The position numbers and the translations under genes were made by a program. Shown piece by piece: positions 10,722 to 27,901 of a stretch of 64,000 nucleotides of DNA. Numbering within the stretch: the stretch's first letter is position 1; each line of letters starts with the position of its first letter. Source of the stretch: an uncultured Acidobacteriota bacterium (GTDB lineage Bacteria; Acidobacteriota; Thermoanaerobaculia; UBA5066; Gp7-AA6); assembly GCA_963765835.1 (NCBI GenBank), contig CAVXYF010000002.1, positions 32,401 through 96,400 of the forward strand, given 5' to 3'. The notes below the pieces were generated by a model, which ran no database searches, was not told where the DNA came from, and worked only from the letters and a program-made list of their open reading frames with translations.

Positions 10722-10863
10722 AAGCGCGCCTCGTTTCCCCCGAATCCCTAGAAAACCCAATAAAGACAGGCCTATCCCCTGTCTCGGGCGAGTGCTGTTT
10801 TCGTCGTCTAGAGAAGTCGAAAACCGTTGATATTCGTGCAGACCCGTCACACCAGCCGTCACA

Positions 10864-11202: not shown

Positions 11203-11321
11203 ATCTTTCGACTCTTGGCCGGGCAGCAGGTCCTGCTAAAGGTTAGATAGAGAAAGATACGGGAACGAACGAGGGGGATCGCAAGCGGATCCCCCCTCTT
11301 TTCGCTCCACGCTCCTTAAGG

Positions 11322-12158
11322 ATGAACCTCGCGGAAAGCACGCGCCAGCTCCGGGGGCAGTCGGCCCCGAGGAGGTTCTTCCGATGGCTGGTCCGTCGTG
11401 GTCACGCCAGCGTCGATCCGACGAAGGACCTCCCGCCGATGAAAGTCCGCTTCATGGAACGCATCCCCGTCTTGACGCGCGCGGAGATCGCCCGGCTTAC
11501 CCTTCGATGCCCGCCGGTGCCTGCGCCGAGAAAGGGACGGCGCGAGCCGATGGCGTTCTTCAGGCGCCGCGTGGAGCTGCACCATCTGGTCGAGGCGCGC
11601 GACCGCGCGCTGATCGCGCTCGTCCACGACATCCCGCTCCGAGGCGGGGAGCCGGCCCTCCTCGAGCTGCGCGACTACGACGAAGTCCGGGGTGAAATCG
11701 ACATCCGTGGCGGGAAATGGCAGTCGGAACCCGTCTCGTTCCCGGTGCTCGAGAGCACGAAAGCCGCGATGGCGCTTTACCTCGATGCCCTCCGGCGCTC
11801 GCGCTGGGCGGATACGTCACCCGCGCTCTTTCCGCCGCTCGGTGTCCGCCGGGCCGATACGAAAAGACCTGCCTCCGGGATCGGCTACTACGAGGTCTAC
11901 CGGATCCTCAAGAGGCGCATCGCGCGTGCGGGGATTGAGCCCAGGGGAAGAAGGCTCTCAGTTCACGTCTTTCGGTATACCCGCGCAACCCACTGGAAGG
12001 AGGAGGGCGTACCGATCGACGACATCTCAGTCCTTCTCCGTCACAAGAAGATCGAAACGACTCGCCTACATCCGGGCGGGCCGTTGAAGCGAACGAAGCG
12101 CCGGGCCGATTGCGCGAGCTTGTTTCGCAGGGTGAACTTCGAGATCCCGCCAGAGTAG
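11322..12158 (+). mobile_element. Tyrosine recombinase (phage-type integrase) catalytic-domain ORF; probably inactive, as it is truncated or split and the catalytic Tyr position reads His
   Basis: HVFRYTRATHWKEEGVPIDDISVLLRHKKIETTRLH matches integrase box II. The expected ...TT(Q/R)(I/L)Y reads TTRLH (CAT where TAT is expected). The lower-GC surroundings and the adjacent tRNA repeat support a mobile origin. Confidence 0.65.
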
Positions 12159-12286
12159 AATCGGGTCTTCAACGAAAGGAGGCCTCCGTTGAAAGCCCTT
12201 TTGTTGATGCCGGAAAACACCCCCACTTGCGGGGGATAACCACGAGGTCGCCCGGCGCCCGCGCCTCAATGCAAAAGTTTACTTCG

Positions 12287-12763
12287 CTAGTGAATCACGA
12301 TGGTTCCGTCGATCGAAGCTATGGAGGTGCCTGCGACGGGGCTAACCAGGGTCAAGTGACGCACTAGAGTGAAACTCCCGGTGGCGAGTGAGAAACGACC
12401 CGTCCCGCCTATAATGGTGTACGTTTCCAAAACAACTTCGGGGTCAGCCGTACCCTCTCCGGTAAACTCAGTGAAAACGCTGTCCCCGTTGGCCGCAACG
12501 AAGTGAGCAGACCCGATTGACGTATTGGTCAAGAGGTTGATCTCAACCTCATAAGTTACCGTGAATCGACCTAGATGTGTGGCCTCTCCTGTGCCGATCG
12601 CATCCACAAACAATGTCGGGAACTGCAGGTCAAAACTTTCAACGTTTTGGACGGAGCCTTTGAAGGGGACCTGTTGAGCTGCCGCGGTGGGGCCGACGAG
12701 GGCCGCTGTCAAGAGGATGGCTGCGATCTGCAAACCGAGCATGGATTTCCTGATACTTTTCAT
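12287..12763 (-). CDS. Small secreted protein of unknown function (island cargo)
   Basis: MKSIRKSMLGLQIAAILLTAALVGPTAAA is a signal peptide. The protein is Gly/Thr-rich and beta-rich, with no recognisable family. Confidence 0.45.
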   Translation of the reverse strand: MKSIRKSMLGLQIAAILLTAALVGPTAAAQQVPFKGSVQNVESFDLQFPTLFVDAIGTGEATHLGRFTVTYEVEINLLTNTSIGSAHFVAANGDSVFTEFTGEGTADPEVVLETYTIIGGTGRFSLATGSFTLVRHLTLVSPVAGTSIASIDGTIVIH

Positions 12764-12902
12764 ATTCGGATCCTTCCTTTCGAGTGGAATGAATCTTCCG
12801 ACGATTCTGAGGACGAAAACTCTCAAGCGCTATGTTGCGGGTTACGGAGCAACTTCCTGGTGACTGGCTCTTCAAATCGCCTCGTTTTGCCTTCCTTTCA
12901 AA

Positions 12903-12967
12903 GTGGCACAGACTTCAGTCTGTGAAGCCCGTACCGTTCACACAACACAGACTGAAGTCTGTGCCAC
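12903..12967. repeat. Perfect 22-bp inverted repeat with a 21-bp spacer
   Basis: GTGGCACAGACTTCAGTCTGTG (12903-12924) and its exact reverse complement CACAGACTGAAGTCTGTGCCAC (12946-12967). Each arm is itself near-palindromic. Confidence 0.8.
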
Positions 12968-14305
12968 CGGCAACTTCCTGACGATGGTGTTTTCTTTCGT
13001 ACATGGTCTCTATTCCTTGTGCGCCGAAAGGCTAGGGGTTTTCATTACCGCCTCCGGTCGCCTTCTCGCTCCCGAACGCCTCCCGATCGCGCTGATCCGC
13101 ATTCTACGTCCCTCTGTCGGGATCCCGGCTGTCAGGAGTCGGAAATGCGGTCGAGAGATGGCGTGGGTTCGCGGCACGGTGTGGCGCGGATGCCGCTTGG
13201 GTCGCCAGACCGACCCGGGCAGCTCTTAGAGTTCAACCTCCCTGCTTCGAATGTCGGATCATCCGGGTGCCGGCAGAGTTAGGATTCGCCCGTAAATGCT
13301 GCGCCGCAGCGTGCTCATCGCAACCCTGGTCGCCGGTTCGTGCGCACCGGTCCAAAAGATGTCCACCCCCCCTCCGCGCACCACGACAGAGCGGAAGCTT
13401 CTCCGGGTGACTCGAAATCCCAATGCAGTCAGGGGGTGCGAGTTCATCGGCAACGTTCGCCCCGCAACCGCTACTTCGAACCCGGTTTACTCAATGCGGC
13501 TCCGTACGGACGAGCTCGGGGGAACGTTCTTTTCATTGTGACGGAGAGGCCACACACCGGCGAGGCGTACCGGTGTAAGGCGCCTACCATCTCAAGCGAC
13601 GATCCCCCACCGGTTACCATCGCGGCGCCTCCATTGACCCCCACGCCGCGCGCCCGCTGATCTTCCCCGGGCGCGTCCCCCCGAGTAGAGAAAAAGGCTC
13701 TTCTCTCTACCCCGAGACCGGGTCAATACAGTCCGCGCTCCCGGGCGGCTCGACGAGGCCTTTCGGGAAGTGAACAGAAATCGAATCTCGCTCCCAGGCT
13801 CCAAACCGCGTGTGCATCCAGCGAGTTGCGCCCAAAATCAGGGGGTCGTTTATCAAGCGATTTGTCGAGCGCCAGGACCCGTATTTCGGGGTGTTCGGAA
13901 AGCCGCCGGTAGACGGGATCGGCTACCACCTCCCTGTTTGTCTAAGAGCCCTAGAGTCCTAGGGAACCTGTCACGCCAGAGGTCACAGGAAAGAGGCTCG
14001 CCTCGAGATCGCTAATGTTCCCAGAGGTATCAGAAGCAGGCGCGCAGTTCTCGGGCACTCGGACGAGAACGTGACCGACTCCTACCTGCAACCCTCGCTC
14101 GCCGACGTGCGCGATGCGGTCAACGCGCCGCGCGCTCGATCGACGGGCACATCCTGCCCGGCACGATTGCGTTTCCAGCGCGACCCGTCACAAAATCCGT
14201 CACGCTCACCGGCGAGAGCGCGGGAATCGCAGAGAGGAGCGTCTCGAATCCTCATGGTTAGCCCCTTGATTCCTCAGAGGCTTGCGCGTAATCTCCGGCC
14301 CTCCC

Positions 14306-15060
<755 letters not shown>

Positions 15061-15069
15061 GCGCCGCGA

Positions 15070-16176
15070 TTACGAGCAGGGAAAGAACGCCGTGATCCCA
15101 TCGGGGAACTGGGTATGAAAGCGATTCCCCGCAAAGCAGTTCCCCGTTCCGCTTCCGTCGTAGACGATGTCCGCCCCGGGAGTCTGTGCGCGCACCGGGT
15201 CTGGACTCCGGCCGTTCTGCAGGATCACGTTATCGCGGACTTCGTTGCCGTCGGGGTTGGGTTCGATTCGGGGATCGAGGCCAGCAAACGGGTTTCCGAG
15301 AATCGCGACGCCCAGGCTGTCGTTCTGGTTCACGACGTTGTCGCGGATCACGACCCGGTCGCCGCCGATGTTCAGGATCCCTGTTCCCGTCGGAAGGAGC
15401 CCTTCGGCCTCACCGCTGTCGGGCGGGACCGGGTTCGGGAAGTTGTTCCGGACCACCACGTTGTTCTCGATCAGAACGTCCTCCGTGAAGGGCTTGGGGA
15501 GACCGGGAAGAACCACGACGAGGATTCCGGTGGTGTTTCCGATCGTTCGGTTGTCGCGGACGACAACGTCCTCGGAGTTCTCGATCTCGATGCCGATGGT
15601 GCACCGGGAAACATCGTTCCTCGCAACGACGATCTCTTCGTCGTCGCCCACGTAGATGCCGGCGTCCTCCGTCCCCTCGACGTGGTTGGACTCGATGACG
15701 CCATTCCGGGAGCAGATCGGGAAGATCCCGTAGTCCTCGTTGTCGAGATACTTCCCGCCCGAGATTCGAAAGCCGTCCACCCCCCGCAGGAGAATCCCGT
15801 TCCTCTCCGCATTCACGACAGTCAGACCGTCGATGGTGAAGTCGTGAAGGGCCAGCGGTGGGCACACCGGGAAGCCGTCCGGGCCCACGGAAAAGCTGCC
15901 GGTACCGACGCGGATTCCGTTATTGAAGCCTTCGGCGTCGAGAATGGCACCGTGGCTTCCCCGAATGGTGATGCCGCTCGTCTCCACGAGCACGCTTTCG
16001 GAGTACCTCCCCGGAGGGACCAGAACAACGTCGCCGGGGCTCGCGGCGTTGACGGCCGCCTGAATCGTCGTCTCGACGACGATCACCTGGCCCCCGCGGG
16101 CCATCCCCGGGAAAAGCGCCCCCACGAGCGCCAGCAGCAGGAAGAAACGGGCGTGCGGCAGGGTCTCTCGGATCAT
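15070..16176 (-). CDS. Secreted right-handed parallel beta-helix repeat protein (pectate-lyase fold / NosD-like)
   Basis: Signal peptide MIRETLPHARFFLLLALVGALF, and repeated PbH1-like segments (NNGIRV, NNVVVRN, IRDNVVNQN). Confidence 0.65.
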   Translation of the reverse strand: MIRETLPHARFFLLLALVGALFPGMARGGQVIVVETTIQAAVNAASPGDVVLVPPGRYSESVLVETSGITIRGSHGAILDAEGFNNGIRVGTGSFSVGPDGFPVCPPLALHDFTIDGLTVVNAERNGILLRGVDGFRISGGKYLDNEDYGIFPICSRNGVIESNHVEGTEDAGIYVGDDEEIVVARNDVSRCTIGIEIENSEDVVVRDNRTIGNTTGILVVVLPGLPKPFTEDVLIENNVVVRNNFPNPVPPDSGEAEGLLPTGTGILNIGGDRVVIRDNVVNQNDSLGVAILGNPFAGLDPRIEPNPDGNEVRDNVILQNGRSPDPVRAQTPGADIVYDGSGTGNCFAGNRFHTQFPDGITAFFPCS

Positions 16177-16349
16177 GGCGAACCTCCTGGCGACCAGAGT
16201 GGAGCGGTCGCTCAGCAAAGTCTTTGAAGGGCTCTGGAGTTCTCATGGGTTTCTTCTGGCCTCTAGAGGTCCGGCGGTCTCTTCGACCAAAGTCTTATTG
16301 ACGCTGACCTCTTCTTGGCTAAGAGTGGAATCCGGGAAGAGAGGTTCTG

Positions 16350-16823
16350 GTGGGTTCCATTCAAGGTTCGAGCACGGCGGGGCGTGCGGAGCGCAAAGAC
16401 TGGACATTGCTGGCGATAGCACTTTCCCGTCAGGGCCTCGCTCCCATCCAGCTTCAGAAATCACTCCACCTTCTTCTTGAGACCTACCCGCGGGACCTCG
16501 GAAGCTTTTACGAGTTCCGCTCCATCAGCTCGGGCCACTTCTCCGCGGAGATCTATCCCGACGCGCAGGCCCTCGCGGGCGACGGGCTCATTACAGTCGA
16601 GATTTCGGAACAGGAGGGGTGGCAGCACTACTCTGCCACGACCGCGGGGGTCGCGCGAGCGAAGCAGATCAAAGAGGTCCTCCGCGCTCCCGTTGTGCAC
16701 TACCTGAAGAGAGTCGTCGAGTGGGCGAGCATCCGTTCCTTCGACCAGCTCGTCCGCCGGCCCTTCGATTCGGGTATGGCGGCGCCCGACGTCTCCGAGC
16801 CGCGGACCGCTCCCCACCGGTAG
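16350..16823 (+). CDS. Hypothetical protein (weak resemblance to a Panacea/DUF4065-type domain)
   Basis: 157-aa ORF; the resemblance to that family is uncertain. Confidence 0.35.
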   Translation: MGSIQGSSTAGRAERKDWTLLAIALSRQGLAPIQLQKSLHLLLETYPRDLGSFYEFRSISSGHFSAEIYPDAQALAGDGLITVEISEQEGWQHYSATTAGVARAKQIKEVLRAPVVHYLKRVVEWASIRSFDQLVRRPFDSGMAAPDVSEPRTAPHR

Positions 16824-16865
16824 GTCGAAACTCTCCCGCGAAGCCGCCTCGAAGCGGCACGGAGG

Positions 16866-17399
16866 GTGCAAGCTCATCCGTTCGTGGACCGCGAAGGCAG
16901 GATTCCGGCGGGTCTCGTCGCGGGTCTGATCGTCTTCGTGCTCGTCATCGGAGCCCTGGCCTACTACGCCGGTCGCTTCGGCCGCCGGGACCCCGGCGCC
17001 TCACCCGCGCATTCGCTCCCCCCTCCCGCCGCTCCGGCGCCCGCGGTGGCCGAGGCCGTTCCGACGCCCGCGGACATTCCCCCGACCGTGACACCGGCCC
17101 TTCCCGTCGTCGTTGAGAGAACCTCTCGCACGCAGCGAACGCTCGTCGAGAAGTCCGCCCAGATCGTGGTCCCGGTGGCGCCCGTGGCGGTGACGCCGAC
17201 GCCCGAGCTTGCGGCCCCGCCGCGGCGGATCATGGTGGAGGTCATCAACACGCCGCGCCCGCTGCCGTCGCCCACGGTTCCCGAGCTGGAGCAGGGGGAC
17301 GAAGAAGACCTGGAACCGGAAGAGGTACCCGAGGAGCCCGAGTTGGAGCCGACCCCCGAGGTCCGCAGTCAGGCCGGAGGCAGACCCGTCTCGATCTGA
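16866..17399 (+). CDS. Hypothetical membrane-anchored proline-rich protein
   Basis: One N-terminal transmembrane helix (LVAGLIVFVLVIGALAYYAG), followed by a Pro/Ala/Thr/Val-rich low-complexity region and an acidic tail. Confidence 0.35.
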   Translation: MQAHPFVDREGRIPAGLVAGLIVFVLVIGALAYYAGRFGRRDPGASPAHSLPPPAAPAPAVAEAVPTPADIPPTVTPALPVVVERTSRTQRTLVEKSAQIVVPVAPVAVTPTPELAAPPRRIMVEVINTPRPLPSPTVPELEQGDEEDLEPEEVPEEPELEPTPEVRSQAGGRPVSI

Positions 17400-17636
17400 T
17401 CCTTCGGCATCGAGATCGCGTTCTCCCGCAAACCGCGATCGACGCACACGAAGCACGCCTTGTAGACGTTCTCGTAGCCCATTTTCATCTCACGGTTTGT
17501 CACGAACACGTTTCGCGGCGGATAGGGCTCGTCCATCCTTCTCAGGGTCACGAGGATTCCGTTACCGACGCGGCTGCGCTCGGTCAGGGTGAACCGATGG
17601 GGCGGCTCCGCCGTGCACTCGATCGAAGCGGCGCTC

Positions 17637-18002
17637 TCAGCGGGCACCCGTGTCGCCCTCCTTGTCCTCCAGGGCGGCGCGGGCTGCTTCCACGGTCGGG
17701 TAGATCTCGAAGAGGGAGTCGAGGTTCGCGGAGTGAAGCAGCGCGGCAATGCGTTCGCGCGGCTTGACGAGCAGGAGCTCCCGCCCCTCCCCCTTCAGGC
17801 GGTGGAGCAAACCCACCAGGATTCCCACGGCGGTCGAGTCCATGTACTCGAGGTCCGTGAGGTCGAGAATGACGGCGCCCGTCCGCTCGGACGCCGCCCT
17901 CTCGAGGCTGCTTTCGAGCTCGCGCACGGTCTCCCCGACCTTCACCATGCCGGCGACTTTGAGGACGGTCGTGCCGCCGGGTCCGTCGTCGTCGACGAAC
18001 AT
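17637..18002 (-). CDS. STAS-domain protein (anti-sigma-factor antagonist, SpoIIAA-like)
   Basis: ...LDLTDLEYMDSTAVGILVGLLHRLKGEG... is the typical STAS fold signature. Confidence 0.7.
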   Translation of the reverse strand: MFVDDDGPGGTTVLKVAGMVKVGETVRELESSLERAASERTGAVILDLTDLEYMDSTAVGILVGLLHRLKGEGRELLLVKPRERIAALLHSANLDSLFEIYPTVEAARAALEDKEGDTGAR

Positions 18003-18030
18003 GGCTACCGCCGGGAAGGACGCGGGCTCG

Positions 18031-18438
18031 TCACGAGTCTCCCTGGCGCACGAGAATTCCTCCGCGCGCGAGAGTCTCGGAGCCGCAACGCACTTCCCCC
18101 TCGAACTTGACGATGAAACCGAATCGCGCGGTCAGGCGGACGTCGATCTCCAGCTTGTCGCCGGGCTGAGGCAGGCGCTCGACCTGGAAACCGTCGATAC
18201 CGGCGAGGAATCCTCGGCGGCCGACCTCCGGATCGCCGCCCTGCAGGAGAAGAGCGGCCTGGGCGAGAGCTTCCGCGAGGAGCGTCGAGCCGCTGCCGCA
18301 ATCCGCGCCGCCGGCGAAGCGCCCATTCGCCGTGAAAGCGGCCGCGACCCGTCCCTGCGTGAAGTCCGGGCCGGCCGGCCGCCGGACGACGTCCACGAAG
18401 CGAAAGGGATACTCGTGAGGCAGGTCCGCCGGCGGCAT
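18031..18438 (-). CDS. Hotdog-fold 3-hydroxyacyl-ACP dehydratase (FabZ/FabA-like)
   Basis: The PHEYPFRFVD N-terminal motif, and ~135 aa hotdog size. TGATG overlap with the upstream ACP gene. Confidence 0.7.
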   Translation of the reverse strand: MPPADLPHEYPFRFVDVVRRPAGPDFTQGRVAAAFTANGRFAGGADCGSGSTLLAEALAQAALLLQGGDPEVGRRGFLAGIDGFQVERLPQPGDKLEIDVRLTARFGFIVKFEGEVRCGSETLARGGILVRQGDS

Positions 18439-18698
18439 CAGGCGATTTTCTTCTGCTCGATGAAGTCGACAAGAGCGTTGACCGAGGAAAACGCTTTCAC
18501 GCCGACCTCTTCGTCCTCGACTTTGATTCCGAACTCCTGCTCCAGGCCGAGAACGAGCTCGAGCGCGTCGATCGAATCGAGACCCAGACCTTCGCCGAAG
18601 AGAGGGGCGTCGTCCTGGATCGAAGCCGGATCGATCTCGAGCTTCAAGCGCCGCACGATCAGTTCTTTGACTCGCGGCGCCAGGTTGTCATTGGTCAT
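18438..18698 (-). CDS. Acyl carrier protein (a dedicated ACP)
   Basis: LGLDSIDALELVLGLEQEFGI carries the phosphopantetheine-attachment Ser motif; ~86 aa. Confidence 0.8.
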   Translation of the reverse strand: MTNDNLAPRVKELIVRRLKLEIDPASIQDDAPLFGEGLGLDSIDALELVLGLEQEFGIKVEDEEVGVKAFSSVNALVDFIEQKKIA

Positions 18699-18750
18699 CG
18701 GATCTCCTCGCAACGAAAATTATAGTCGCGCCGCCTTCGGTGTCCCTTTT

Positions 18751-19479
18751 TCACGCCATTCCCCCGTCGACCCGCCAGACCTGTCCCGTGACGTAGGACG
18801 CGCGGTCCGAGACGAGAAAGCCGACGACCGCCGCGATCTCCTCGGGCGTTCCGAAGCGCGCCATCGGGATTCGCCGGACGAACTCCTCCCGGGCATCCTC
18901 TTTCAGGTGCGCGATGATCTCGGTCGAGACGAGTCCGGGTGCAACCGCGTTGACCGTGATCTGTCGCGTGGCGAGCTCGAGCGCGAGCGCCTTCGTGAAC
19001 GCAATCAGCCCTCCCTTCGCGGCGGAGTAGTTCGTCTGGCCGGCGTGGCCCGAGATTCCCGAGACCGACACGACGTTGACGATCCGGCCCCATCCCTTGT
19101 GGAGCATTCCGCGGACCACCGCCTTCGTGACCCGGAAGGCTCCCTTCAGGTCCGTGTCGAGGACGAAGTCCCAGTCCTCCTCCTTCATGAACGGGAAGAG
19201 CGCGTCCTTGATGACACCGGCGTTGTTCACCAGAATGTCCGCGCCGCCGAACTCGGCGGAAATCCTCTCTCCCAGGCTTCGGACCTCCGCGGCCTTCGTC
19301 ACGTCGGCGGCGATCGCGACCGCCTCGCCTCCCCGCGCCCGCAACTCGTCGACCGTCCGGGAAGCGCGGGCCTCGTCTTGCCGGTAGCAGACGACGACGC
19401 GGTGGCCCGCCGTCACGAGCTCGTCCGCGATGGCCCGCCCGATCCCGCGGGATCCGCCCGTCACGAGAGCCGTTTTCAT
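18751..19479 (-). CDS. fabG: 3-oxoacyl-ACP reductase (SDR family, FabG)
   Basis: TGGSRGIGRAIA ... NNAG ... YSAAK catalytic motifs; 242 aa. Confidence 0.9.
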   Translation of the reverse strand: MKTALVTGGSRGIGRAIADELVTAGHRVVVCYRQDEARASRTVDELRARGGEAVAIAADVTKAAEVRSLGERISAEFGGADILVNNAGVIKDALFPFMKEEDWDFVLDTDLKGAFRVTKAVVRGMLHKGWGRIVNVVSVSGISGHAGQTNYSAAKGGLIAFTKALALELATRQITVNAVAPGLVSTEIIAHLKEDAREEFVRRIPMARFGTPEEIAAVVGFLVSDRASYVTGQVWRVDGGMA

Positions 19480-20408
19480 GCGCCGCCGAGACTATCCGAG
19501 ACGGCGCGGATGGCCGAAAGGGATCCGGCCGGGCGGCATGTGGTGGTCCGGTCGATCCACCGGGCCATCTTCGAGAGCATGTCTCCGGGTCCGACTTCCA
19601 CGAACGAGCGGTGCCCATCCGCGACCATCGCCTCGTAAGTCTCGTTCCACAGCGTCGGGTGAATGAACTCCGTCGCCAGGAGCTCTCGCACCTTCTCGCC
19701 CGTCCGGGCCCGCCGCCCATCCGGGCCGTAGTAAGGCACGACGGGGTCGCGGATCGAGTCGAGCGCCGCGACCACCGGGGCCACCGCGTCGGCGACAGGT
19801 TGCATGAGCGAGCTGTGGATCGGCCAGCTCATGGACAGCGGAAGGACCGTCAGCGACTTTGGAGACAGAAGAGCCAGAGCCTCCGCCACCGCCTCGGCGC
19901 GGCCGGTCAGGACGAACTGCGTGGACGCGTTGACGTTTCCGATCCACACCGGCTGGCCGCGGCTGCGCAGTTCCGCGCAGACCTCGTCGACGGCTTCCCG
20001 GCGGGCGCCGACGACCGCGCCCATCGACCCTCGGATCCCGAGCCGCTCGGTCTCCCGCCAGACGGCGATCAACACTGCGAGCGCGTCCTCGTAGGAAACG
20101 GCCCCGGCGGCGACGAGAGCTGCGTAGTTGCCGAGGCTGTAACCCGCGGTCGCCCCGGGGCGCACGCCCTCCCTCTCGAGCGCGCGCGCCGCCAGCGTGG
20201 AAACCAGGTACACGCCGGCCTGGGCCGCAAGGTTCTCGTGAAGGGCTTGCGCGGGTCCCGCGAACAGAATCTTCTCCAGGTCGCGGCCGCAACGCTCCGA
20301 CGTACGGGTGAAGAGCTCTCGGGCGGCGGGGTCGGACTCCCAGAAGTCGCGACCCATCCCTACGGTCTCGGCGAGCTGGCCCGAGAAGAGAAAAGCCGGC
20401 GGGTTCAT
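19476..20408 (-). CDS. fabD: Malonyl-CoA:ACP transacylase (FabD-like acyltransferase)
   Basis: FLFSGQ...GYSLGNYAAL (GxSxG nucleophile elbow). The internal ATG at 20408 gives ~310 aa; the ORF track over-extends it. Confidence 0.85.
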   Translation of the reverse strand: MNPPAFLFSGQLAETVGMGRDFWESDPAARELFTRTSERCGRDLEKILFAGPAQALHENLAAQAGVYLVSTLAARALEREGVRPGATAGYSLGNYAALVAAGAVSYEDALAVLIAVWRETERLGIRGSMGAVVGARREAVDEVCAELRSRGQPVWIGNVNASTQFVLTGRAEAVAEALALLSPKSLTVLPLSMSWPIHSSLMQPVADAVAPVVAALDSIRDPVVPYYGPDGRRARTGEKVRELLATEFIHPTLWNETYEAMVADGHRSFVEVGPGDMLSKMARWIDRTTTCRPAGSLSAIRAVSDSLGGA

Positions 20409-21280
20409 GCCGTTTCGAGCGAGGGAAGAACGTCTTCGAGCGCGACGCAGCGGTCGCGGTCCAGCCAGCGGCGGAAGCGGTCCGGCAGGACCGAGAGCTT
20501 CAGGAAGTGCACCGTGCGGAGGAGCGGTGGAAGCCCCTCCATCCGGGGGTGATCGAAATCGAACTCCCACGGGTGGAACGTGAAGACCGCGGGGTGGCCG
20601 CGATCGCGGTACGCCCGTTCGGCCGCCGCGATCCGGTCCTCCGGGAGCAGCCGGAAGGGCCAGCCTCCACCGACCGGCAGCCTCCGGCCGAATCCGCGAC
20701 CCGTCAGAGGGGGAATCTCGACGATCGAGCCGCCCTCCCCCTCCACGCGGTACGGGCCGAGCGGGTTGTCGAAGCGCCCGAGGGGAGGGACCGCGGTCGC
20801 CGACGCGTCGCACCGGAAGCCCTCTTCCGACAGGATTCCGAGCGCGGGGTCGCCGGGATGGCGGATCGACCACTCCGCCGCGCGGTGCGCGTGGCAGCGG
20901 ACTCCCGCGGCGTCTTCGATCGCAAAGCGTGCCCGGCGCAGGTCCTCCCGGAACTCCCGGGGGGTCATTTCATCAGCGCGGAGGTGACGATCGCCGTGGA
21001 CCGCCGGCTCGTGGCCCCGGCGAACAGCCTCCCTCACCAGGTCGGGGCGTTTCCGCGCTACCCAGCCGAGGAAGAAGACCGTGGCCCGGTGTCCGCCGCC
21101 CTCGAGCAGGTCGAGGAGGTGGAGAAAGGTCTTCTCGATCCGCGATGGGAACGAGTCCCAGCGGCGCCAGTCCGAGTAGAAGTCGTCGCCGCACACGTGG
21201 AACCAGTCTTCCGCATCGATCGTGAGCACCCGCGGAGCGGGGCCGGGCGTACGGAGGAGGGTGATCCGAGGTTGCGACAC
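20405..21280 (-). CDS. Polysaccharide deacetylase (NodB-homology domain; ArnD or PEP-CTERM-locus type)
   Basis: LTIDAEDWFH is a metal-binding motif variant, and the His-rich C-terminal half resembles DUF3473. Confidence 0.75.
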   Translation of the reverse strand: MSQPRITLLRTPGPAPRVLTIDAEDWFHVCGDDFYSDWRRWDSFPSRIEKTFLHLLDLLEGGGHRATVFFLGWVARKRPDLVREAVRRGHEPAVHGDRHLRADEMTPREFREDLRRARFAIEDAAGVRCHAHRAAEWSIRHPGDPALGILSEEGFRCDASATAVPPLGRFDNPLGPYRVEGEGGSIVEIPPLTGRGFGRRLPVGGGWPFRLLPEDRIAAAERAYRDRGHPAVFTFHPWEFDFDHPRMEGLPPLLRTVHFLKLSVLPDRFRRWLDRDRCVALEDVLPSLETA

Positions 21281-21432
21281 GAGTCCCGAATTCTAGTCGC
21301 CGCGAGGTCGCGTCTTCGCCATGGGATGGTGCTTCGCCATGAGTTAGCGGCCGCTCGACACGGCCGGAGGGAGCAAACGGCCGTTGCGCACCATCCCATG
21401 GTGAGTGCGCAGCTCGCCTCGCGACTCGGACC

Positions 21433-22123
21433 CTAGTCCGTCTCGAAGACCTTGTAGTACACCGCGCCCCACGAAATGATCCACGTGTCGCGGAACGGCC
21501 GGTAGTGCGAGCCGGCAGAGTCGTAGATGGCGCGCACCGGAACGCTCGCGAACCGGTGGACGTGCCGCGCCGCCTTCAAGAGAACCTCCGTCTCGATCAG
21601 ATATCCGCGCGAAGAGAGCGACAGCCGGCGCAGCAGGGGCGCGGCGACCACGCGGTAGCCGGACTGCCCGTCCTCGACCTCGTGTCCGGTCATGCGCGTC
21701 AGGATGCGGCTCCCGATTTCGTTCGTGCGGAAGCGGACCGCCGGGATGTGCTCCCTCCCGTTGACGCGCGAGCCGATAACGAAGTCGTCGCCGGACCGCG
21801 CGGCGTCGAGCAGTCGGGGGAGATCGTCCGGATCGTGCTGGCCATCCGCGTCGACGAAGGCGACGTGACTCGCGTCCCCGGCGAGAACCGTCTCGAGGCC
21901 GGCCCGCAGCGCGCTCCCCTTGCCGGCGTTCACCGGAAGCCGGACGACCTCCGCGCCCGCCCGCTTCGCCTCCGCCGAGGTCCCGTCGGTGGACCCGTCG
22001 TCGACGACCACGACTCGCGGCACGTGCCTCCGCAGGCCGCGAACCACCGCACCGATGGTGGCCTCCGCCTGAAATGCGGGGACGAGCGCAACCGGATGGA
22101 AGTCGGATTCCACGTGGGGATCG
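21433..22123 (-). CDS. Family-2 glycosyltransferase (polyprenyl-phosphate sugar transferase-like: DPM1/ArnC/GtrB type, soluble domain only)
   Basis: VVVDDGSTDGT...FVDADGQHDP...QSGYR GT2 motifs. A GTG start at 22123 is used, because the upstream part of the ORF-track entry overlaps the nuo promoter region on the other strand. Confidence 0.75.
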
Positions 22124-22157
22124 TAGCCCGAGCATCCCGTTGACTCTCCCTCCGCGC

Positions 22158-22175
22158 TTGTGAAAAAGTTCACAA
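22158..22175 (+). promoter_or_regulatory. Rex operator (TTGTGAA-N4-TTCACAA), ~50 bp upstream of nuoA, in the divergent intergenic region with a TTGACT -35-like hexamer at 22139
   Basis: Exact palindrome TTGTGAAAAAGTTCACAA. The rex gene lies at the 3' end of the same operon. Confidence 0.75.
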
Positions 22176-22227
22176 CCGCTCGGCGCGCCCCGTTGCGCCG
22201 TTGGAAAGCCGGAATCGCGAGGTGCGG

Positions 22228-22581
22228 ATGGAAGAAAGTTATCTCCCGATCCTCATCCTGATGCTCTTCGCGATCGGAATCGCCGGCGCGATGATCCTCG
22301 TTTCCGCGGTGCTCGGCCCGCGTCTGCGCACGCGCCGGAAGCTCGACACCTACGAGAGCGGAATGCCGCTCCTGGACGCGTCTCACAAACGGATCTCCAT
22401 CCAGTTCTTCCTGATCGCGATGGTCTTCATCCTCTTCGACGTCGAGATCGCGTTCCTCTACCCCTGGGCGCTGGTGTTTCGCGAGGGAGGCATGCCCCTC
22501 TTCTACGAAATGGTGGCCTTCCTCGCGGTCCTCGCCGTGGGCTACGCCTACCTCTGGAAGAACAGGGCGTTCGACTGGTGA
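22228..22581 (+). CDS. nuoA: NADH-quinone oxidoreductase subunit A
   Basis: Three transmembrane helices, with the YESG and FDVE..FLYPWA motifs. Confidence 0.85.
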   Translation: MEESYLPILILMLFAIGIAGAMILVSAVLGPRLRTRRKLDTYESGMPLLDASHKRISIQFFLIAMVFILFDVEIAFLYPWALVFREGGMPLFYEMVAFLAVLAVGYAYLWKNRAFDW

Positions 22582-23084
22582 CCCACGTCCGTTACACGCT
22601 CGAGTCCGGGGGAGCACCGGCGAAGTTTCCCCCGAGGCGCGCCAGCGGATCGAGCGGATCCTGGCCCGCTACCCCACGAAGCAGGCGGCGCTCCTGCCCG
22701 TCCTGTGGGTCGCGCAGGAGACCTGGGGCTGGATTTCCCGGGAAGCGGCCGAGGAAGTCGCTCGGATCCTGGAACTCCCCCCGCGCACGTTTCGGGGTTC
22801 TCACCTTCTACACGATGTACAACCTGCGGCCCGTCGGCCGGAACCTGCTCCAGTTCTGCACGTCGATCTCCTGCCACATCGCGGGCGCCGGCCGACTGCT
22901 CGATCACTGCCGGAACCGTCTCGGGATCGACCTCGGTCAGACCACCGCGGACGGCAGCTTCACGATGGTCGAGGTCGAGTGCATCGCGGGCTGCGACCGC
23001 GCGCCGTCGATGATGGTCAACGACACCTACCACGAGCCGATGGACGCGGCGCGGCTGGATGCCCTGCTGGACGGGTTGAAGTGA
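22578..23084 (+). pseudogene. nuoE: NADH-quinone oxidoreductase subunit E (24-kDa, [2Fe-2S]), interrupted by frameshifts at homopolymer runs
   Basis: The C-terminal half (CTSISCHIAGAG...VECIAGCDRAP) is in the ORF frame. The N-terminal half (ARQRIERILARYPTKQAALLPVLWVAQETWGWIS) lies in another frame. Removing one C from CCCCCC at 22774-22779 restores LELPRARFGVLTFYTMY. A second shift near the GGGGG run at ~22608 is probable. Confidence 0.75.
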
Positions 23085-24397
23085 AGTCGGAGCAGGTTCT
23101 TCTCGCGCGGGTCGGCCGGGAGCACTCGGAGGCGATCGACACGTACGTCGCGGACGGCGGGTACGAGGCTCTCCGGAAAGTCCTCGGCGGCGCGTGGACT
23201 CCGGAAGCCGTCACGGAGGAGGTCAAGAAGTCGGGGCTTCGCGGCCGCGGCGGCGCGGGTTTCCCGACCGGCGTGAAGTGGGGCTTCGTCCCCAAGGACA
23301 CGAAGGGGAAGCCGGTCTACCTCCTCTGCAACGCGGACGAGTCGGAGCCCGGGACCTTCAAGGACCGGCTGCTGATGGAGAAGGACCCCCACCAGATGCT
23401 GGAGGGCCAGATCATCTCGGCGTACGCGCTGAAGTGCCGCAGCTCGTACATCTACATCCGCGGCGAGTTCTACGAGGGAGCCCGGATCCTGCAGCGCGCG
23501 ATCGACGAGGCGTACCGGGAGGGCTTCCTCGGGGAGAACATCCTCGGGTCCGGGTTCTCGCACGACATGACCGTCCACCGCGGCGCCGGCGCCTACATCT
23601 GCGGCGAGGAGACCGGTCTGATCGAGAGCCTGGAGGGCAAACGCGGCCAGCCTCGGATCAAGCCGCCCTTCCCCGCCGTGTTCGGGGTCTTCGGCGCGCC
23701 CACGATCGTCAACAACGTCGAGACGCTGTGCTGCGTGACCCACGTGATGAAACGGGGCGCCGAGTGGTTCGCAAAGATCGGCCGAAACGAGAAGAACACG
23801 GGGCCGAAGCTCTACTGCCTGTCCGGTCACGTCAACCGGCCCGGCGTCTACGAGGCCCCGATGGGCCTTCAGATGAAGGAGCTCCTCTTCGGGGACGACT
23901 ACGGGCAGGGCATGAAGGACGGCCGTAAGGTCAAGGCGGTCATCCCGGGTGGAGCCTCCGCGGCAATGCTGACGGCGGAGGAAATCGAAGACTGTCCGCT
24001 GGACTTCGACGGCCTGGCCGCCAAGAAGTCGATGCTGGGGTCGGCCGCGATCATCGTCATGAACGAGGACACCTGCATCGTCGACGCCGCGACGAACCTG
24101 GCCAAGTTCTTCTCCCACGAGTCGTGCGGGCAGTGCACTCCCTGTCGGGAGGGAACTCCCTGGCTGCACCGGGTGCTCGCGCGCATCGAAGACGGGGAGG
24201 GCCGGAGCGAGGACATCGACCTCCTCGAGAAGATCTCCAACCAGATGGCCAACGGCATGACCATCTGCGTCTTCGCGGACGCCGCGATCGCGCCAGTGCT
24301 GTCGTCGATCGGGAAGTTCCGCGACGAGTACCGGTACCACGTCGAGAACAAACGCTGTCTCGTGGGGCCGCGCGCCGGGGCGCTGGCCACGGCATGA
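23081..24397 (+). CDS. nuoF: NADH-quinone oxidoreductase subunit F (51-kDa, FMN/NADH/[4Fe-4S])
   Basis: GRGGAGFPTG, GEETGLIESLEG, and the CGQCTPCREG cluster motif. A GTG start overlaps the nuoE stop. Confidence 0.9.
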   Translation: MKSEQVLLARVGREHSEAIDTYVADGGYEALRKVLGGAWTPEAVTEEVKKSGLRGRGGAGFPTGVKWGFVPKDTKGKPVYLLCNADESEPGTFKDRLLMEKDPHQMLEGQIISAYALKCRSSYIYIRGEFYEGARILQRAIDEAYREGFLGENILGSGFSHDMTVHRGAGAYICGEETGLIESLEGKRGQPRIKPPFPAVFGVFGAPTIVNNVETLCCVTHVMKRGAEWFAKIGRNEKNTGPKLYCLSGHVNRPGVYEAPMGLQMKELLFGDDYGQGMKDGRKVKAVIPGGASAAMLTAEEIEDCPLDFDGLAAKKSMLGSAAIIVMNEDTCIVDAATNLAKFFSHESCGQCTPCREGTPWLHRVLARIEDGEGRSEDIDLLEKISNQMANGMTICVFADAAIAPVLSSIGKFRDEYRYHVENKRCLVGPRAGALATA

Positions 24398-26046
24398 GCA
24401 CCCCGGCCCCGCCCGCGACCGAAAAGAAGACCGTCACCGTCGTCTTCGACGGTGTCCCGATCGAGGTGCCCCCCGGGATCAACCTGATCGAGGCTGCGAA
24501 GCTCGCGGGAATCGAGATCCCCCACTTCTGCTTCCACCCCCGGCTGTCGGTCGTCGGGCAGTGCCGGATGTGCCTCGTCGAGATCGAGGGCATTCCCAAG
24601 ATCCAGGCGGCGTGCACGACCCCGCTGAAGGAAGGTCTCGTCGTCAAGACGACCACGGAGAAGGTGCGCGACTCGCGGGCCGCGAACATGGAGTTCCTCC
24701 TCATCAACCACCCGCTCGATTGCCCGATCTGCGACCAGGCCGGCGAGTGCAAGCTGCAGGACAACGCGTTCGGCTACGGCGAGCAGCGGTCCCGGTACGA
24801 CGAGCGGAAGCGGCAGTACGCCGGCTACGACCGGACGATGATCGGACCGCACGTCGTCGCCGACATGACCCGCTGCATCCAGTGCACGCGGTGCATCCGC
24901 TTCTGCTCCGAGATCGCAGGCACCGGCGAGCTCACCTTCCTGGATCGCGGCGGGCGCACGCTCGTCTGGACCCACGACGGTAAGCCGCTCGCGAACGACT
25001 GGTCGGCGTGCGCAGCCGACGTTTGCCCGGTCGGCGCGCTCACGACCCGGGAGTTCCGGTTCCGGCGCCGCGTCTGGGACCTCGCAAAGACTCCCTCGGT
25101 CTGCCCGGGGTGCAACATCGGCTGCAACATCTCGATCGAGAACCGCGACAACGTGGTCTACCGGTTCCTGCCCCGGCTGAACCCGGACGTGAACGACTAC
25201 TGGCTCTGCGACTACGGCCGCTTTCTGTCGGAGAGCCTGAACGCCCGGGACGTGGCGAAGGCCACGGTCCGGAGCGCGACGGAGGTGCGGGACGTCATCG
25301 TGCCGGCGGCCGTCGGGCAGATCGCGTCCGTCATCCGGGAGACGATCGACGCGGACGGGCCGTCGGGGCTGTTCTTCCTCGGGTCGGCGGACCTCTCGAA
25401 CGAGGAGAACTTTCTCCTCCGGAAGATCTCGGACCACCTGGGGTGCGCCAACCGCGACGTCGTCGTCGACCGCTCCCGGGTTCGCCGGATGAAGTCGAAG
25501 ACCGAGTGGATCGAGGGAGACCACGCCGCCGCCAACTACGCCGGCGCCCGGGACATGGGCATGACGCCGGGACCCGGTGGGCACGGCCTCGCCGACGTCC
25601 TCGAGGGCCGGTGGAGTCCGGCGGTCGTGGTCGTCGCGGACGCGGCGTTCTCGGCGGCCGCGGACGACCCGGACTCGGTTGCCCTGCTCCGCAAGGCGAA
25701 ATTTCTCGCGGTCGCCGGGCGAACCTCCAACGCCTTGACCCGAGCGGCCGACGTCGTCCTCCCGGCGTCCTCGCTCGCCCAGAAGGAGGGTTCGTTCACG
25801 AACGTGCAGGGGCGCGTCCAGCGGTTCGACCGGGCCTTCCTGCCGCCGCCGCCGTCGCGGCCTCACTGGGAGTTGCTCCTGCTGCTGGCGGTGGCGCTCG
25901 GTTGGGGAGACCGCAACTGGACTCCGGCCGACCTGCGCGCCCAGATCCGCGCGGAGGTAGCGGGCTACGACCACATCACCGAAGAGGAGATGGCGGGCGG
26001 CGGCCTCCTGAAGAAGGGGCTGTTCGTCTCGACCGGCGCGCTGTGA
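24394..26046 (+). CDS. nuoG: NADH-quinone oxidoreductase subunit G (short form, ~550 aa)
   Basis: N-terminal 2Fe-2S and 4Fe-4S cysteine clusters (CRMCLVE, CPICDQAGEC, CIQCTRCIRFC, CPVGAL). ATGA overlap with nuoF. Confidence 0.9.
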   Translation: MSTPAPPATEKKTVTVVFDGVPIEVPPGINLIEAAKLAGIEIPHFCFHPRLSVVGQCRMCLVEIEGIPKIQAACTTPLKEGLVVKTTTEKVRDSRAANMEFLLINHPLDCPICDQAGECKLQDNAFGYGEQRSRYDERKRQYAGYDRTMIGPHVVADMTRCIQCTRCIRFCSEIAGTGELTFLDRGGRTLVWTHDGKPLANDWSACAADVCPVGALTTREFRFRRRVWDLAKTPSVCPGCNIGCNISIENRDNVVYRFLPRLNPDVNDYWLCDYGRFLSESLNARDVAKATVRSATEVRDVIVPAAVGQIASVIRETIDADGPSGLFFLGSADLSNEENFLLRKISDHLGCANRDVVVDRSRVRRMKSKTEWIEGDHAAANYAGARDMGMTPGPGGHGLADVLEGRWSPAVVVVADAAFSAAADDPDSVALLRKAKFLAVAGRTSNALTRAADVVLPASSLAQKEGSFTNVQGRVQRFDRAFLPPPPSRPHWELLLLLAVALGWGDRNWTPADLRAQIRAEVAGYDHITEEEMAGGGLLKKGLFVSTGAL

Positions 26047-27083
26047 GCGGCACAGACCTGGGGATCGCGGCCCTTCGCGTGCTCGCCCCGGTCCTGGCCA
26101 TCCTGATCGTTCTGCCGATGCTCCAGTGGGTGGAGCGCCGCGGAGCCGGCTTGATCCAGGACCGGCCGGGCCCCAACCGCGTCGGCCCGTTCGGCCTTCT
26201 CCAGCCGCTCGCCGACGTCGTCAAGTTCTTCATGAAGGAAGACCTGATCCCGTCGAACGCGGACCGTTTCCTCTACGTGCTCGCGCCGGGCCTCGCGGCG
26301 TTCGCGGCGATGACCACCTTCGCTGTCATCCCGTACGGGGCGACGCTGACCGCGGGCGGCCGGGTCATACCGCTGGTCGGCGCGGACATCTCGATCGGGA
26401 TCCTGTACCTGTTCGCGCTCACCTCGCTGTCGGTCTACGGGATCGTGCTCGCGGGCTGGTCTTCCAACAACAAATTCTCCCTGATGGGCGGCATCCGCTC
26501 GAGCGCTCAGATCATTTCCTACGAGCTCGCGATGACGACCGCCGCCGCCGGCGTCGTTCTTTCGGCCGGATCGTTCCGGCTGACGGAGGTCGTCGTCCAA
26601 CAGGGCGGGAGCTGGTTCGCGTTCCCCTTCCACGGATGGAACGTCGTTCCGCAATTCCTGGGGTTCGTCGTCTTCTTCGTCTCCGCGTTCGCGGAGACCA
26701 ACCGCCTTCCCTTCGACCTCCCGGAAGCCGAGGCGGAGCTCGTCGCCGGATACCACACCGAGTATTCCGCCATGAAGTTCGCGATGTTCTACATGGCCGA
26801 GTACATCAACGTCATCGTGGCCTCGGCGCTCACGGTCACGCTCTACTTCGGGGGCTGGACGCTGCCCGGTTTTCACCCGACCGGGATCGGCGGCGTCCTC
26901 CTCTCGGTCCTGGTCTTCGCGGTCAAGACCGTAGCCGTCGTGTGGGTCTTCATGTGGGTGCGGTGGACTCTGCCGCGCTTCCGGTACGACCAGCTCATGC
27001 GGCTCGGCTGGAAAGCGCTCCTGCCGCTCGCGCTCGCGAACCTCTTCTGGGCCGCGGCGCTCGTTCTCTGGAAGGTCCTGTGA
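26043..27083 (+). CDS. nuoH: NADH-quinone oxidoreductase subunit H
   Basis: Multi-transmembrane protein with the conserved FAETNRLPFDLPEAE.ELVAGY.TEYS motif; GTGA overlap with nuoG. Confidence 0.9.
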   Translation: MSGTDLGIAALRVLAPVLAILIVLPMLQWVERRGAGLIQDRPGPNRVGPFGLLQPLADVVKFFMKEDLIPSNADRFLYVLAPGLAAFAAMTTFAVIPYGATLTAGGRVIPLVGADISIGILYLFALTSLSVYGIVLAGWSSNNKFSLMGGIRSSAQIISYELAMTTAAAGVVLSAGSFRLTEVVVQQGGSWFAFPFHGWNVVPQFLGFVVFFVSAFAETNRLPFDLPEAEAELVAGYHTEYSAMKFAMFYMAEYINVIVASALTVTLYFGGWTLPGFHPTGIGGVLLSVLVFAVKTVAVVWVFMWVRWTLPRFRYDQLMRLGWKALLPLALANLFWAAALVLWKVL

Positions 27084-27589
27084 CGGTCCGGCTCGCGTTC
27101 GACGTCGCCGCGGGGCTCGCAATCGTCTTCGCCTGCGCCATGGTGGTACACCGCCACCCGGTCAAGAGCGTTCTCGCGCTGGTCGTCTCGTTCTTCGCCC
27201 TCGCGGTCACGTTCGTGCTCCTTTCGGCGCCGCTGATCGCGGCCGTCCAGGTCATCGTCTACGCGGGCGCCATCCTCGTCCTCTTTCTCTTCGTGCTGAT
27301 GCTCTTAAACGTGCCCGCCGAGGTCCGACAGACCCCGGGCCGGCCGATCCACCACACGCTTTCGGCCGGAGCGATCGTGGCCTTCGCGGCGGCTTTGCTG
27401 GCGGCGTTCCGCTCCTACGGCTCGACGTCCGCGACTCCCTCCGCGGCGCTTTCGGACCCCTCCGACCTGGCTCCTCTCGCCCGGGTTCTGTTCTCGGATC
27501 ACCTCCTCTCGTTCGAGGCCCTGTCGATCCTGCTCCTGGCGGCGCTCGTGGGGGCGTTCGCTCTGGCGCGGCGGGAGGGAAGCCCGTGA
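27081..27589 (+). CDS. nuoJ: NADH-quinone oxidoreductase subunit J
   Basis: Small five-transmembrane-helix subunit sitting directly after nuoH, with no nuoI between them. Confidence 0.8.
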
Positions 27590-27900
27590 CGCCCAACGGA
27601 ATTCCGCTGGGCGACATCCTGCTCGCCTCCGGAGCGCTCTTCTCGATCGGGCTCGCGGGCGCGCTGCTGCGCCGGAACGCCATCTCGATCTTCCTCGCCA
27701 TCGAGCTGATGATGAACGCGGCGAACCTGGCGATCCTCGGCTATGCCGCGGCGCTCAACAGCCTCGAGGGGCAGATCGTCGTCTTCTTCGTGATCGCGAT
27801 CGCCGCCGCCGAGGCCGCGGTGGGGCTCGCCATCTTCGTCGCCCTCTTCCGGCACACCGAAACGATCGACGTCAACAAGATCAACCTGCTGAAGTGGTGA
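27586..27900 (+). CDS. nuoK: NADH-quinone oxidoreductase subunit K
   Basis: 104 aa with three transmembrane helices; the ...AAAEAAVGLAI.. motif. Confidence 0.9.
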   Translation: MTPNGIPLGDILLASGALFSIGLAGALLRRNAISIFLAIELMMNAANLAILGYAAALNSLEGQIVVFFVIAIAAAEAAVGLAIFVALFRHTETIDVNKINLLKW

Positions 27901-27901
27901 C

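Follow-up and report, generated by a model that had tools for sequence, protein, structure and literature searches.

A class-wide gene block of Thermoanaerobaculia joins a NodB-type deacetylase to a dedicated acyl carrier protein module and may serve cell-envelope tailoring

ArnC and ArnD are the undecaprenyl-phosphate-Ara4FN synthase and deformylase, respectively, and PpgS is a polyprenyl-P-GalNAc synthase, while the Nod-factor genes (NodC, NodB, NodA, NodF, the ketosynthase NodE and NodG) serve the N-acylation of deacetylated GlcNAc. PpgS acts in the mycobacterial and corynebacterial galactosamine (GalN) pathway, with GalN on arabinogalactan (PMC9671496, citing Skovierova 2010). Here, we describe a locus on contig CAVXYF010000002.1 of an uncultured Acidobacteriota bacterium of the class Thermoanaerobaculia, of which a stretch of 64,000 nucleotides (the window) was analysed. 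In this locus a family 2 glycosyltransferase (GT2) and a NodB-fold deacetylase are encoded together with an acyl carrier protein (ACP), a FabD-fold acyltransferase (AT), a FabG-type reductase, a FabZ-fold hotdog protein, a STAS protein and a small orphan protein, orf92. We propose that this is a class-specific cell-envelope tailoring locus whose products would replace the N-acetyl group on a lipid-linked hexosamine by an acyl group delivered from ACP, and we put the probability of this reading at about 0.35.

As in the ArnC/ArnD and PpgS systems, a DPM1-family GT2 is paired with a cytoplasmic enzyme, which is proposed here to remove the N-acyl group from a lipid-linked amino sugar. In contrast to these systems, the proteins score far below the respective cut-offs, the deacetylase is of the DUF3473 type without an ArnD match, neither a flippase nor an ArnT/Rv3779-type GT-C transferase is encoded in the locus, and an ACP module is attached here only. 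With LpxC/LpxD the locus would share the removal of an acetyl group and the addition of a 3-hydroxyacyl group from ACP, whereas the enzymes are unrelated, LpxC not being NodB-fold and LpxD being a left-handed beta-helix protein. In lipid A synthesis the substrate is a UDP-sugar and the donor is the housekeeping ACP; the likeness is one of logic only. With the Nod-factor genes the locus has in common a GT2, a NodB-fold deacetylase, a private ACP (NodF) and a FabG paralogue (NodG). Unlike NodC, however, the GT2 described here has 226 aa and no membrane domain and is not processive, NodA and NodE are missing, and the deacetylase reaches only 26 bits on the NodB model. ArnC/ArnD, PpgS and LpxC/LpxD are best regarded as analogies of logic and not as memberships.

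All eight genes lie on the minus strand, and genuine genes were told from the many spurious open reading frames of the window (GC content ~67%) by third-position GC and codon scoring. In the direction of transcription they encode the GT2 (226 aa; 21433-22113), the NodB+DUF3473 deacetylase (291 aa; 20405-21280), the AT (310 aa; 19476-20408), the FabG-type 3-oxoacyl-ACP reductase (242 aa; 18751-19479), the ACP (86 aa; 18438-18698), the hotdog protein (135 aa; 18031-18438), a single-domain STAS protein of the SpoIIAA/RsbV type (121 aa; 17637-18002) and, as the last gene of the locus, the conserved orphan protein orf92 (92 aa; 17369-17647). The first-pass annotation of this DNA had listed seven co-directional genes; all of these are present and their families are backed by Pfam and NCBIfam, but the eighth gene, orf92, had been overlooked. 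The coordinates of that annotation were near-exact, except that the end given as 22123 fits neither the favoured GTG start of the GT2 at 22113 nor the alternative in-frame GTG at 22173. The genes had also been described as overlapping, which applies to three of the six junctions, namely NodB/AT (ATGA), AT/FabG (ATGA) and ACP/hotdog (TGATG), while the other three are gaps of 152 bp (GT2-NodB), 52 bp (FabG-ACP) and 28 bp (hotdog-STAS). The stop of the STAS gene is overlapped by orf92 by 11 nt.

A search with the deacetylase gene found copies of 60-88% identity in 80 species-level genome bins, each of which bears the label Thermoanaerobaculia or Acidobacteriota. Gene order in these 80 related loci (individual loci are given as L numbers) was then compared by using the window proteins as tblastn queries. 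In essentially every sufficiently long locus the order nuoF-nuoE-nuoA was followed by the divergent genes GT2-NodB-AT-FabG-ACP-hotdog-(STAS)-orf92. Since the same order recurs in ~80 species-level genomes, among which the proteins of the locus are 40-98% identical, the arrangement is far beyond chance; the gene context is kept across the whole class. The ACP is the best-conserved member (79-98% identity across loci), and the GT2 orthologues are 61-85% identical (74 loci). The STAS gene is missing in ~14 lineages (including L015, L017, L021, L024 and L026), whereas orf92 is better conserved and was retained in every locus whose contig reaches that far. Past orf92 conservation stops, the most widespread downstream neighbour being found in 10 of 56 loci, and because nothing downstream is conserved the locus ends there. 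On the other side the nuo operon stays adjacent and divergently transcribed in ~70 loci. A homology search with the ACP returned only orthologues of at least 90% identity and nothing beyond the class, identical copies of the NodB, AT and hotdog proteins were not on record, and no Rfam match was obtained between positions 16000 and 23000. The literature search yielded no account of this locus and no papers on DUF3473, nor on Thermoanaerobaculia combined with 'acyl carrier protein'.

The GT2 matches PF00535 (2.1e-23), has conserved VVDDGS and DADGQHD motifs and contains no transmembrane segment. Its best NCBIfam matches all stay below their cut-offs (AglJ 111 vs 325, PpgS 100 vs 370 and ArnC 37 vs 529 bits), its matches also include a haloarchaeal dolichyl-phosphate hexose transferase, and the best match in the PDB is DPMS 5mlz (1e-9), followed by ArnC. 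The protein was initially described as ArnC/DPM1-like, and these matches to polyprenyl- and dolichyl-phosphate sugar synthases agree with that description: it appears to be a GT2 of the DPM1/PpgS/AglJ/ArnC type, for which its family suggests polyprenyl phosphate as the acceptor. The deacetylase shows the Polysacc_deac_1 plus DUF3473 architecture (PF01522 5.9e-14; PF11959 6.4e-24), and its motifs TIDAEDWFH, HE..VHGD.H, RAAEWS and FHPWEFD are conserved in 79 sequences. A signal peptide was looked for and none was found, which places the enzyme in the cytoplasm. It had been called an ArnD-like NodB deacetylase; the NodB+DUF3473 architecture and the lack of a signal peptide bear this out in part, but an ArnD match was not obtained. 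TIGR03006, the model of XrtA-system deacetylases, is its best-scoring model and nevertheless remains below the trusted cut-off (198.5 vs 276.2 bits), and annotated XrtA-system deacetylases are its closest annotated relatives at 38% identity. The GT2 and the deacetylase stay far under all equivalog cut-offs, and their gene context is conserved across the class.

The ACP keeps the phosphopantetheine serine (GLDS). It scores 52.7 bits on the AcpP model TIGR00517, below the cut-off of 70.45, and 69.0 bits against a cut-off of 70 on NF006617, the model of ApeE-like 'phosphopantetheine-binding protein', which is also the name given to its orthologues by NCBI's PGAP pipeline. It shares 54% identity with an ACP encoded on Bacillus cereus-group plasmids and 51% with the first, ApeE-type ACP of a Pseudoalteromonas aryl-polyene (APE) cluster, compared with 34% for E. 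coli AcpP, and it has the motif APLFGEGLGLDSIDALEL in common with PDB entry 9ls6. It is a dedicated carrier, probably of the ApeE-like subfamily, and not the housekeeping AcpP, and the 'private' ACP of the first-pass annotation is supported by the low TIGR00517 score and in the closer relationship to ACPs from specialised clusters.

The three proteins with fatty-acid-synthase folds differ in how much of their catalytic equipment they keep. The AT (PF00698) has true FabDs as its best PDB matches and is 32% identical to E. coli FabD, but reaches only 175 bits on TIGR00128 (FabD; cut-off 260.9). Its Ser92-His201 dyad is invariant in 72 of 72 sequences, and Gln11 and Asn162 are retained as well. 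In the same 72 sequences GHSLG is changed to GYSLG and Arg117 is replaced by Val or Ile; GQGSQ is changed to GQLAE in the six family sequences aligned. In FabD, Arg117 binds the malonyl carboxylate, and within this fold loss of the arginine goes with the use of monocarboxylic acyl groups. FabG, on the other hand, looks canonical, with intact catalytic motifs (TGGSRGIG, NNAG and YSAAK), 47% identity to E. coli FabG and 301 bits on TIGR01830 (cut-off 297.75); it also scores 278 bits on the flexirubin FlxB model. No Pfam match, including the FabA family, was obtained for the hotdog protein, and its FabZ scores lie below the cut-offs (NF000582 41 vs 113 bits, TIGR01750 34 vs 155 bits). In a Foldseek search with a predicted model of moderate quality (pLDDT 75) all top matches were FabZ structures (TM 0.72). 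None of the 70 family members keeps the histidine of the FabZ motif GHFPG, its position being taken by Ala, Gly or Met, whereas the Glu of the central helix (LAEAxAQ) never varies and an LPHxYPFRFVD motif is conserved. Because the catalytic histidine is missing, the protein is not expected to dehydrate by the FabZ mechanism on its own. PF22817 is listed for about half of the hotdog homologues in a precomputed table, could not be reproduced by hmmscan at E ≤10 and was given no weight. The labels 'FabD' and 'hotdog dehydratase' are consequently right for the fold only, as key residues are gone in both, and the earlier picture of three fatty-acid-synthase-type enzymes that make a (3-hydroxy)acyl chain is too simple, since the AT is without Arg117 and the hotdog protein without its catalytic histidine.

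A cassette on Bacillus cereus-group plasmids (for example NZ_CP009349.1) has the same AT-FabG-ACP-FabZ order, and among annotated proteins its ACP is the nearest to the one described here (54% identity). Its AT keeps GHSLG, GQGSQ and Arg117 and its FabZ keeps GHFP, unlike their counterparts in Thermoanaerobaculia, and the cassette is followed by genes for a large ketosynthase, for a GNAT protein and for dTDP-rhamnose. On the Bacillus thuringiensis HD1002 plasmid (L087, NZ_CP009349.1) this uncharacterised cluster, which occurs on many B. cereus-group plasmids, spans 7795-18653 and also comprises a thioesterase, a 1038-aa GNAT protein, a DUF6365 protein, an aminomethyltransferase and an 818-aa ketosynthase next to the dTDP-rhamnose genes.

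The STAS protein (PF01740) passes TIGR00377 with 68.7 bits (cut-off 53.45), has TM1442 as its best PDB match and retains the DST serine, which is the phosphorylatable position. A partner kinase or anti-sigma gene for it was not found in the locus, and the protein is probably an accessory member closest to single-domain anti-sigma antagonists. A role as an ACP-binding domain, for which the SLC26 protein YchM is a precedent and only a lead, was rejected because of this closeness to the SpoIIAA/RsbV type. In orf92, Cys11, His17, Cys65 and Cys68 are invariant.

Transcription units were deduced by phylogenetic footprinting of -10 boxes across the related loci. Upstream of the GT2 a predicted -10 box TACGAT (22120-22125, minus strand) lies 6 nt before the start codon; a TA..AT box of the TAGGAT/TACGAT type was found in 69 of 73 loci, mostly 6 nt from the start and without a Shine-Dalgarno sequence. 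The deacetylase gene is preceded by a predicted box TAGAAT (21290-21295, minus strand), 9 nt before its GTG and likewise without Shine-Dalgarno sequence, and TA(C/G)AAT is present 6-10 nt upstream of the start in 75 of 79 loci, even where the spacer measures 16-19 nt. As these boxes are so close to the start codons, the NodB and GT2 transcripts would be leaderless, which may point to leaderless transcription as a frequent trait of this class. In front of the ACP gene an invariant TATAAT (18719-18724, minus strand) is followed by a GAGGAG/AAGGAG Shine-Dalgarno sequence and represents the predicted internal promoter of ACP-hotdog-STAS-orf92. Every one of 71 loci has this box 16-21 nt from the ATG, however long the spacer (21-193 nt), and a promoter scan returned GGGACA-16-TATAAT. 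Within 40 nt upstream of AT, FabG, hotdog, STAS and orf92 a -10 box was seen in none of ~70 loci each. Three transcription units are therefore predicted from these motifs, [GT2], [NodB-AT-FabG] and [ACP-hotdog-(STAS)-orf92]. These boxes weaken the assumption of a single unit. NodB, AT and FabG, by contrast, are joined by two ATGA junctions, and in ~75 loci no -10 box intervenes, which ties the deacetylase gene physically to those of AT and FabG.

Several further elements were seen in the intergenic spacers. In the divergent spacer between nuoA and the GT2 gene a perfect palindrome, TTGTGAACTTTTTCACAA, of the CRP/FNR type (TGTGA-N6-TCACA) lies at 22158-22175; it precedes nuoA in 24 of 70 loci and is found almost nowhere else, with only 27 occurrences in 1.34 Mb of related sequence. 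A motif GAGTCAACG at 22138-22146 is present in 64 of 70 loci, and its reverse complement contains TTGACT. The GT2-NodB spacer carries at 21319-21401 a pair of 13-bp inverted repeats (CCATGGGATGGTG / CACCATCCCATGG) around a 57-bp core with a GC-rich hairpin. This core has the opposite orientation in L081, a 93% identical relative, and in several other loci, and in L005 it is located between nuoA and GT2. An invertible promoter between GT2 and NodB was considered, but L081 lacks the left repeat and the element is also found in other spacers in both orientations; a small palindromic element of intergenic regions seems more likely than an invertible segment.

For the activity of the locus, we propose the following route. 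The peripheral GT2 would, as its family suggests, take a nucleotide sugar as donor and place the N-acetyl-hexosamine on polyprenyl phosphate at the cytoplasmic face, and the NodB+DUF3473 enzyme, with its intact NodB motifs and cytoplasmic location, would strip the N-acetyl group. The dedicated ApeE-like ACP would carry the replacement acyl group, and the FabG paralogue, assigned by family and motifs, would reduce a presumed 3-oxoacyl-ACP substrate to (R)-3-hydroxyacyl-ACP. The AT, in which the Ser-His dyad is kept and the malonyl-binding arginine lost, may handle a monocarboxylic acyl group, either by loading it from CoA onto the ACP without a ketosynthase or by passing it from the ACP to the freed amine. 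The second option would fit because the AT gene is translationally coupled to the deacetylase gene, and we infer from the sequence that the atypical AT is the best candidate for the acyl transfer step. For the hotdog protein, a more likely role would be to bind or present acyl-ACP, or to pair with a different hotdog subunit. As FabG is intact and the hotdog protein inactive as a dehydratase, the chain would likely keep its 3-hydroxyl group. The STAS protein and the Cys/His-rich orf92 may serve as accessory partners. A similar layout is found in a true XrtA locus, on plasmid pDV of Desulfovibrio (Nitratidesulfovibrio) vulgaris, where the deacetylase gene overlaps a FemAB-family gene, while in the locus studied here it overlaps the FabD-fold AT gene and an ACP is present. 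FemAB-family enzymes acylate amines, and the shared plan of freeing an amine and then re-acylating it supports the proposed exchange of acyl groups.

Several observations weigh against this proposal. A promoter of its own is predicted for the GT2 gene, and unrelated genes, among them one for a secreted SLH-like protein, lie in the GT2-NodB spacer of at least eight lineages (L010, L014, L019, L033, L037, L061, L069 and L078); for both reasons the link of the GT2 to the rest of the locus is weaker, and it is the most loosely attached member. The acceptor of the GT2 could be a nucleotide sugar or a polymer instead of a polyprenyl-linked sugar. Moreover, the substrates of both GT2 and deacetylase are guesses, because their subfamily scores lie far below the equivalog cut-offs. 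A flippase, a GT-C transferase and a recognised N-acyltransferase are all missing from the conserved block, and an ACP this strongly conserved, with a perfect TATAAT box before its gene, could also have a more central function in the cell. Deacetylation followed by N-acylation of a lipid-linked amino sugar, as first suggested, nonetheless remains the best reading, the N-acylation at its centre being a step that we infer.

Apart from the nuo operon and the bulk of the trp operon, nearly all called genes of the window were scanned against Pfam; the scans showed sulfate assimilation, an integrase, the trp operon and further unrelated functions, and no ketosynthase, further acyltransferase or exosortase was found among the genes scanned. 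With E. coli FabH, FabF, PlsX and AcpP as queries, tblastn gave no match in the window, nor in any of 84 loci searched together with their 10-kb flanks, and of the E. coli fatty-acid proteins only those corresponding to AT (30-32% identity) and FabG (44-47%) responded. The first-pass annotation had seen neither a ketosynthase nor an acyltransferase in the window, which the Pfam scans and the FabF and FabH searches of window and loci confirm. It had pointed to the flanks for a ketosynthase and xrtA, but no ketosynthase lies within 10 kb in the 84 loci and no exosortase is encoded by the window genes scanned. The scanned genes of the 64-kb window likewise include no chain-length determinant, export or FemAB gene.

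A housekeeping fatty-acid synthase (fabD-fabG-acpP-fabZ) that merely sits beside glycan genes would be suggested by the order AT-FabG-ACP, which mimics the canonical fabD-fabG-acpP, by FabG passing TIGR01830, and by the very high conservation, perfect -10 box and strong Shine-Dalgarno sequence of the ACP gene. AT, ACP and hotdog protein all fall below the relevant cut-offs, however (175 vs 260.9, 52.7 vs 70.45 and 34 vs 155 bits), neither the AT without Arg117 nor the hotdog protein without its histidine would be able to do the housekeeping job, fabH, fabF and plsX are not nearby, and the orthologous ACPs carry the PGAP name 'phosphopantetheine-binding protein'. The cut-offs and the missing residues largely reject this explanation, which we hold to be very improbable. 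Rather less doubtful is a specialised lipid pathway of the APE kind, akin to type II fatty-acid/polyketide synthesis, in which ACP, ketoreductase, AT and hotdog protein would together with ketosynthases encoded elsewhere make an unusual acyl chain, while GT2 and NodB would act in making or modifying the anchor or head group, and the outcome would be a free glycolipid and not an N-acylated sugar precursor. APE and flexirubin clusters likewise combine an ApeE-type ACP (51% identity, motif PLF..GLGLDSIDALEL) with a FabG-like ketoreductase, a hotdog protein and a small GT2, and the ACP described here comes close to the NF006617 cut-off (69.0 vs 70 bits). The GT2 of the Pseudoalteromonas APE cluster is 26% identical (1e-19) to the one described here, FabG scores well on the FlxB model (278 bits), and the Bacillus plasmids carry the same-order cassette together with a ketosynthase. 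These clusters differ from the locus in that it has a NodB deacetylase instead of a ketosynthase/chain-length factor pair (KS/CLF), AMP-ligase, thioesterase, LolA-like protein and exporter, none of which is encoded in the window or within 10 kb in the 84 loci. Repeated dehydration would fail without the catalytic histidine of the hotdog protein, and the AT lacks the malonyl-binding arginine needed for extender-unit supply. We regard such a pathway as possible but doubtful; membership in an APE cluster proper was rejected, as KS/CLF, ligase and exporter are missing.

It could also be that two or three separate units, a glycan pair (GT2 and NodB) and an unrelated acyl-ACP module, are joined by inherited synteny only. 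The three conserved promoters predicted above and the inserts between GT2 and NodB in the eight named lineages would agree with this, and common ancestry accounts by itself for part of the conservation, given that every locus belongs to the same class. The ATGA overlaps of NodB, AT and FabG without an intervening -10 box in ~75 loci argue for real coupling, as does the block staying intact where synteny past orf92 has decayed to the point that any one gene is found in at most 10 of 56 loci, so that we consider separate units unlikely. Comparable modules in PEP-CTERM/exosortase exopolysaccharide loci had been pointed out in the first-pass annotation, and a module of the XrtA/PEP-CTERM exopolysaccharide system would be in line with TIGR03006 as the best-scoring model, with the NodB+DUF3473 architecture and with the 38% identity to XrtA-system deacetylases. 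This hint was not borne out: the score stays below the cut-off (198.5 vs 276.2), exosortase, chain-length determinant, export and FemAB genes are missing from the scanned window genes, and the true XrtA locus on pDV has a full exopolysaccharide export set, of which nothing is present at the locus studied here. XrtA/PEP-CTERM membership was rejected on score and context, and we give this explanation hardly any credence.

The genes around the locus show some features of their own. Two open reading frames on the plus strand, 16866-17399 and 16407-16823, converge on orf92. The first encodes a proline-rich protein with a single hydrophobic segment and the second a protein of 138 aa; no family match was obtained for either, and their conservation does not extend beyond the closest relatives (L001-L012 and L079). 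On the opposite flank the nuo operon (22201-32808, plus strand) runs nuoA, E, F, G, H, J, K, L, M, N. The run contains none of the genes of the Q module (nuoB, C, D and I), the end of nuoA is the start of nuoE, nuoJ follows directly after nuoH, and the same gene order is found in the relative L081. Between 26000 and 32000 (nuoH-nuoN) the AT skew is about -0.27 to -0.29, far stronger than in the rest of the window, presumably owing to the codon composition of membrane proteins. Farther away, a tyrosine recombinase/integrase gene (11322-12158) is followed by a stretch of low GC content (51-62% vs 67%) without confident genes, which ends at a tRNA-Leu(CAG) gene (14306-14390); the region 11322-14390 looks like an integrated element or its remnant at a tRNA gene. 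A second low-GC stretch (59%) with few confident genes, including one for a TPR protein (41193-41852), extends over 39000-44000 and may be acquired DNA.

Mitochondrial complex I carries an acyl-ACP subunit. The adjacency of the nuo operon is kept in ~70 genomes, while the other flank has decayed completely, and on this basis the ACP sub-operon might be functionally tied to the divergent nuo operon, with acyl-ACP or a derived lipid serving complex I assembly or regulation. We judge this highly improbable; if true, it would be a bacterial counterpart of the mitochondrial acyl-ACP subunit. Should the units be unrelated, the finding would shrink to a conserved gene order within one class.

If the acyl exchange proposed here is correct, a class of abundant uncultured soil Acidobacteria would make an envelope component by an undescribed route, namely a lipid-linked amino sugar in which the acetyl group is swapped for an ACP-borne, probably 3-hydroxylated, acyl chain. 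The players would be unusual, comprising a malonate-blind FabD-fold AT, a non-dehydrating FabZ-fold protein and an orphan Cys/His protein found nowhere else. It would also provide testable functions for DUF3473 deacetylases and for ApeE-type ACPs outside pigment clusters, and would be a further case of fatty-acid-synthase parts being reused without a ketosynthase.

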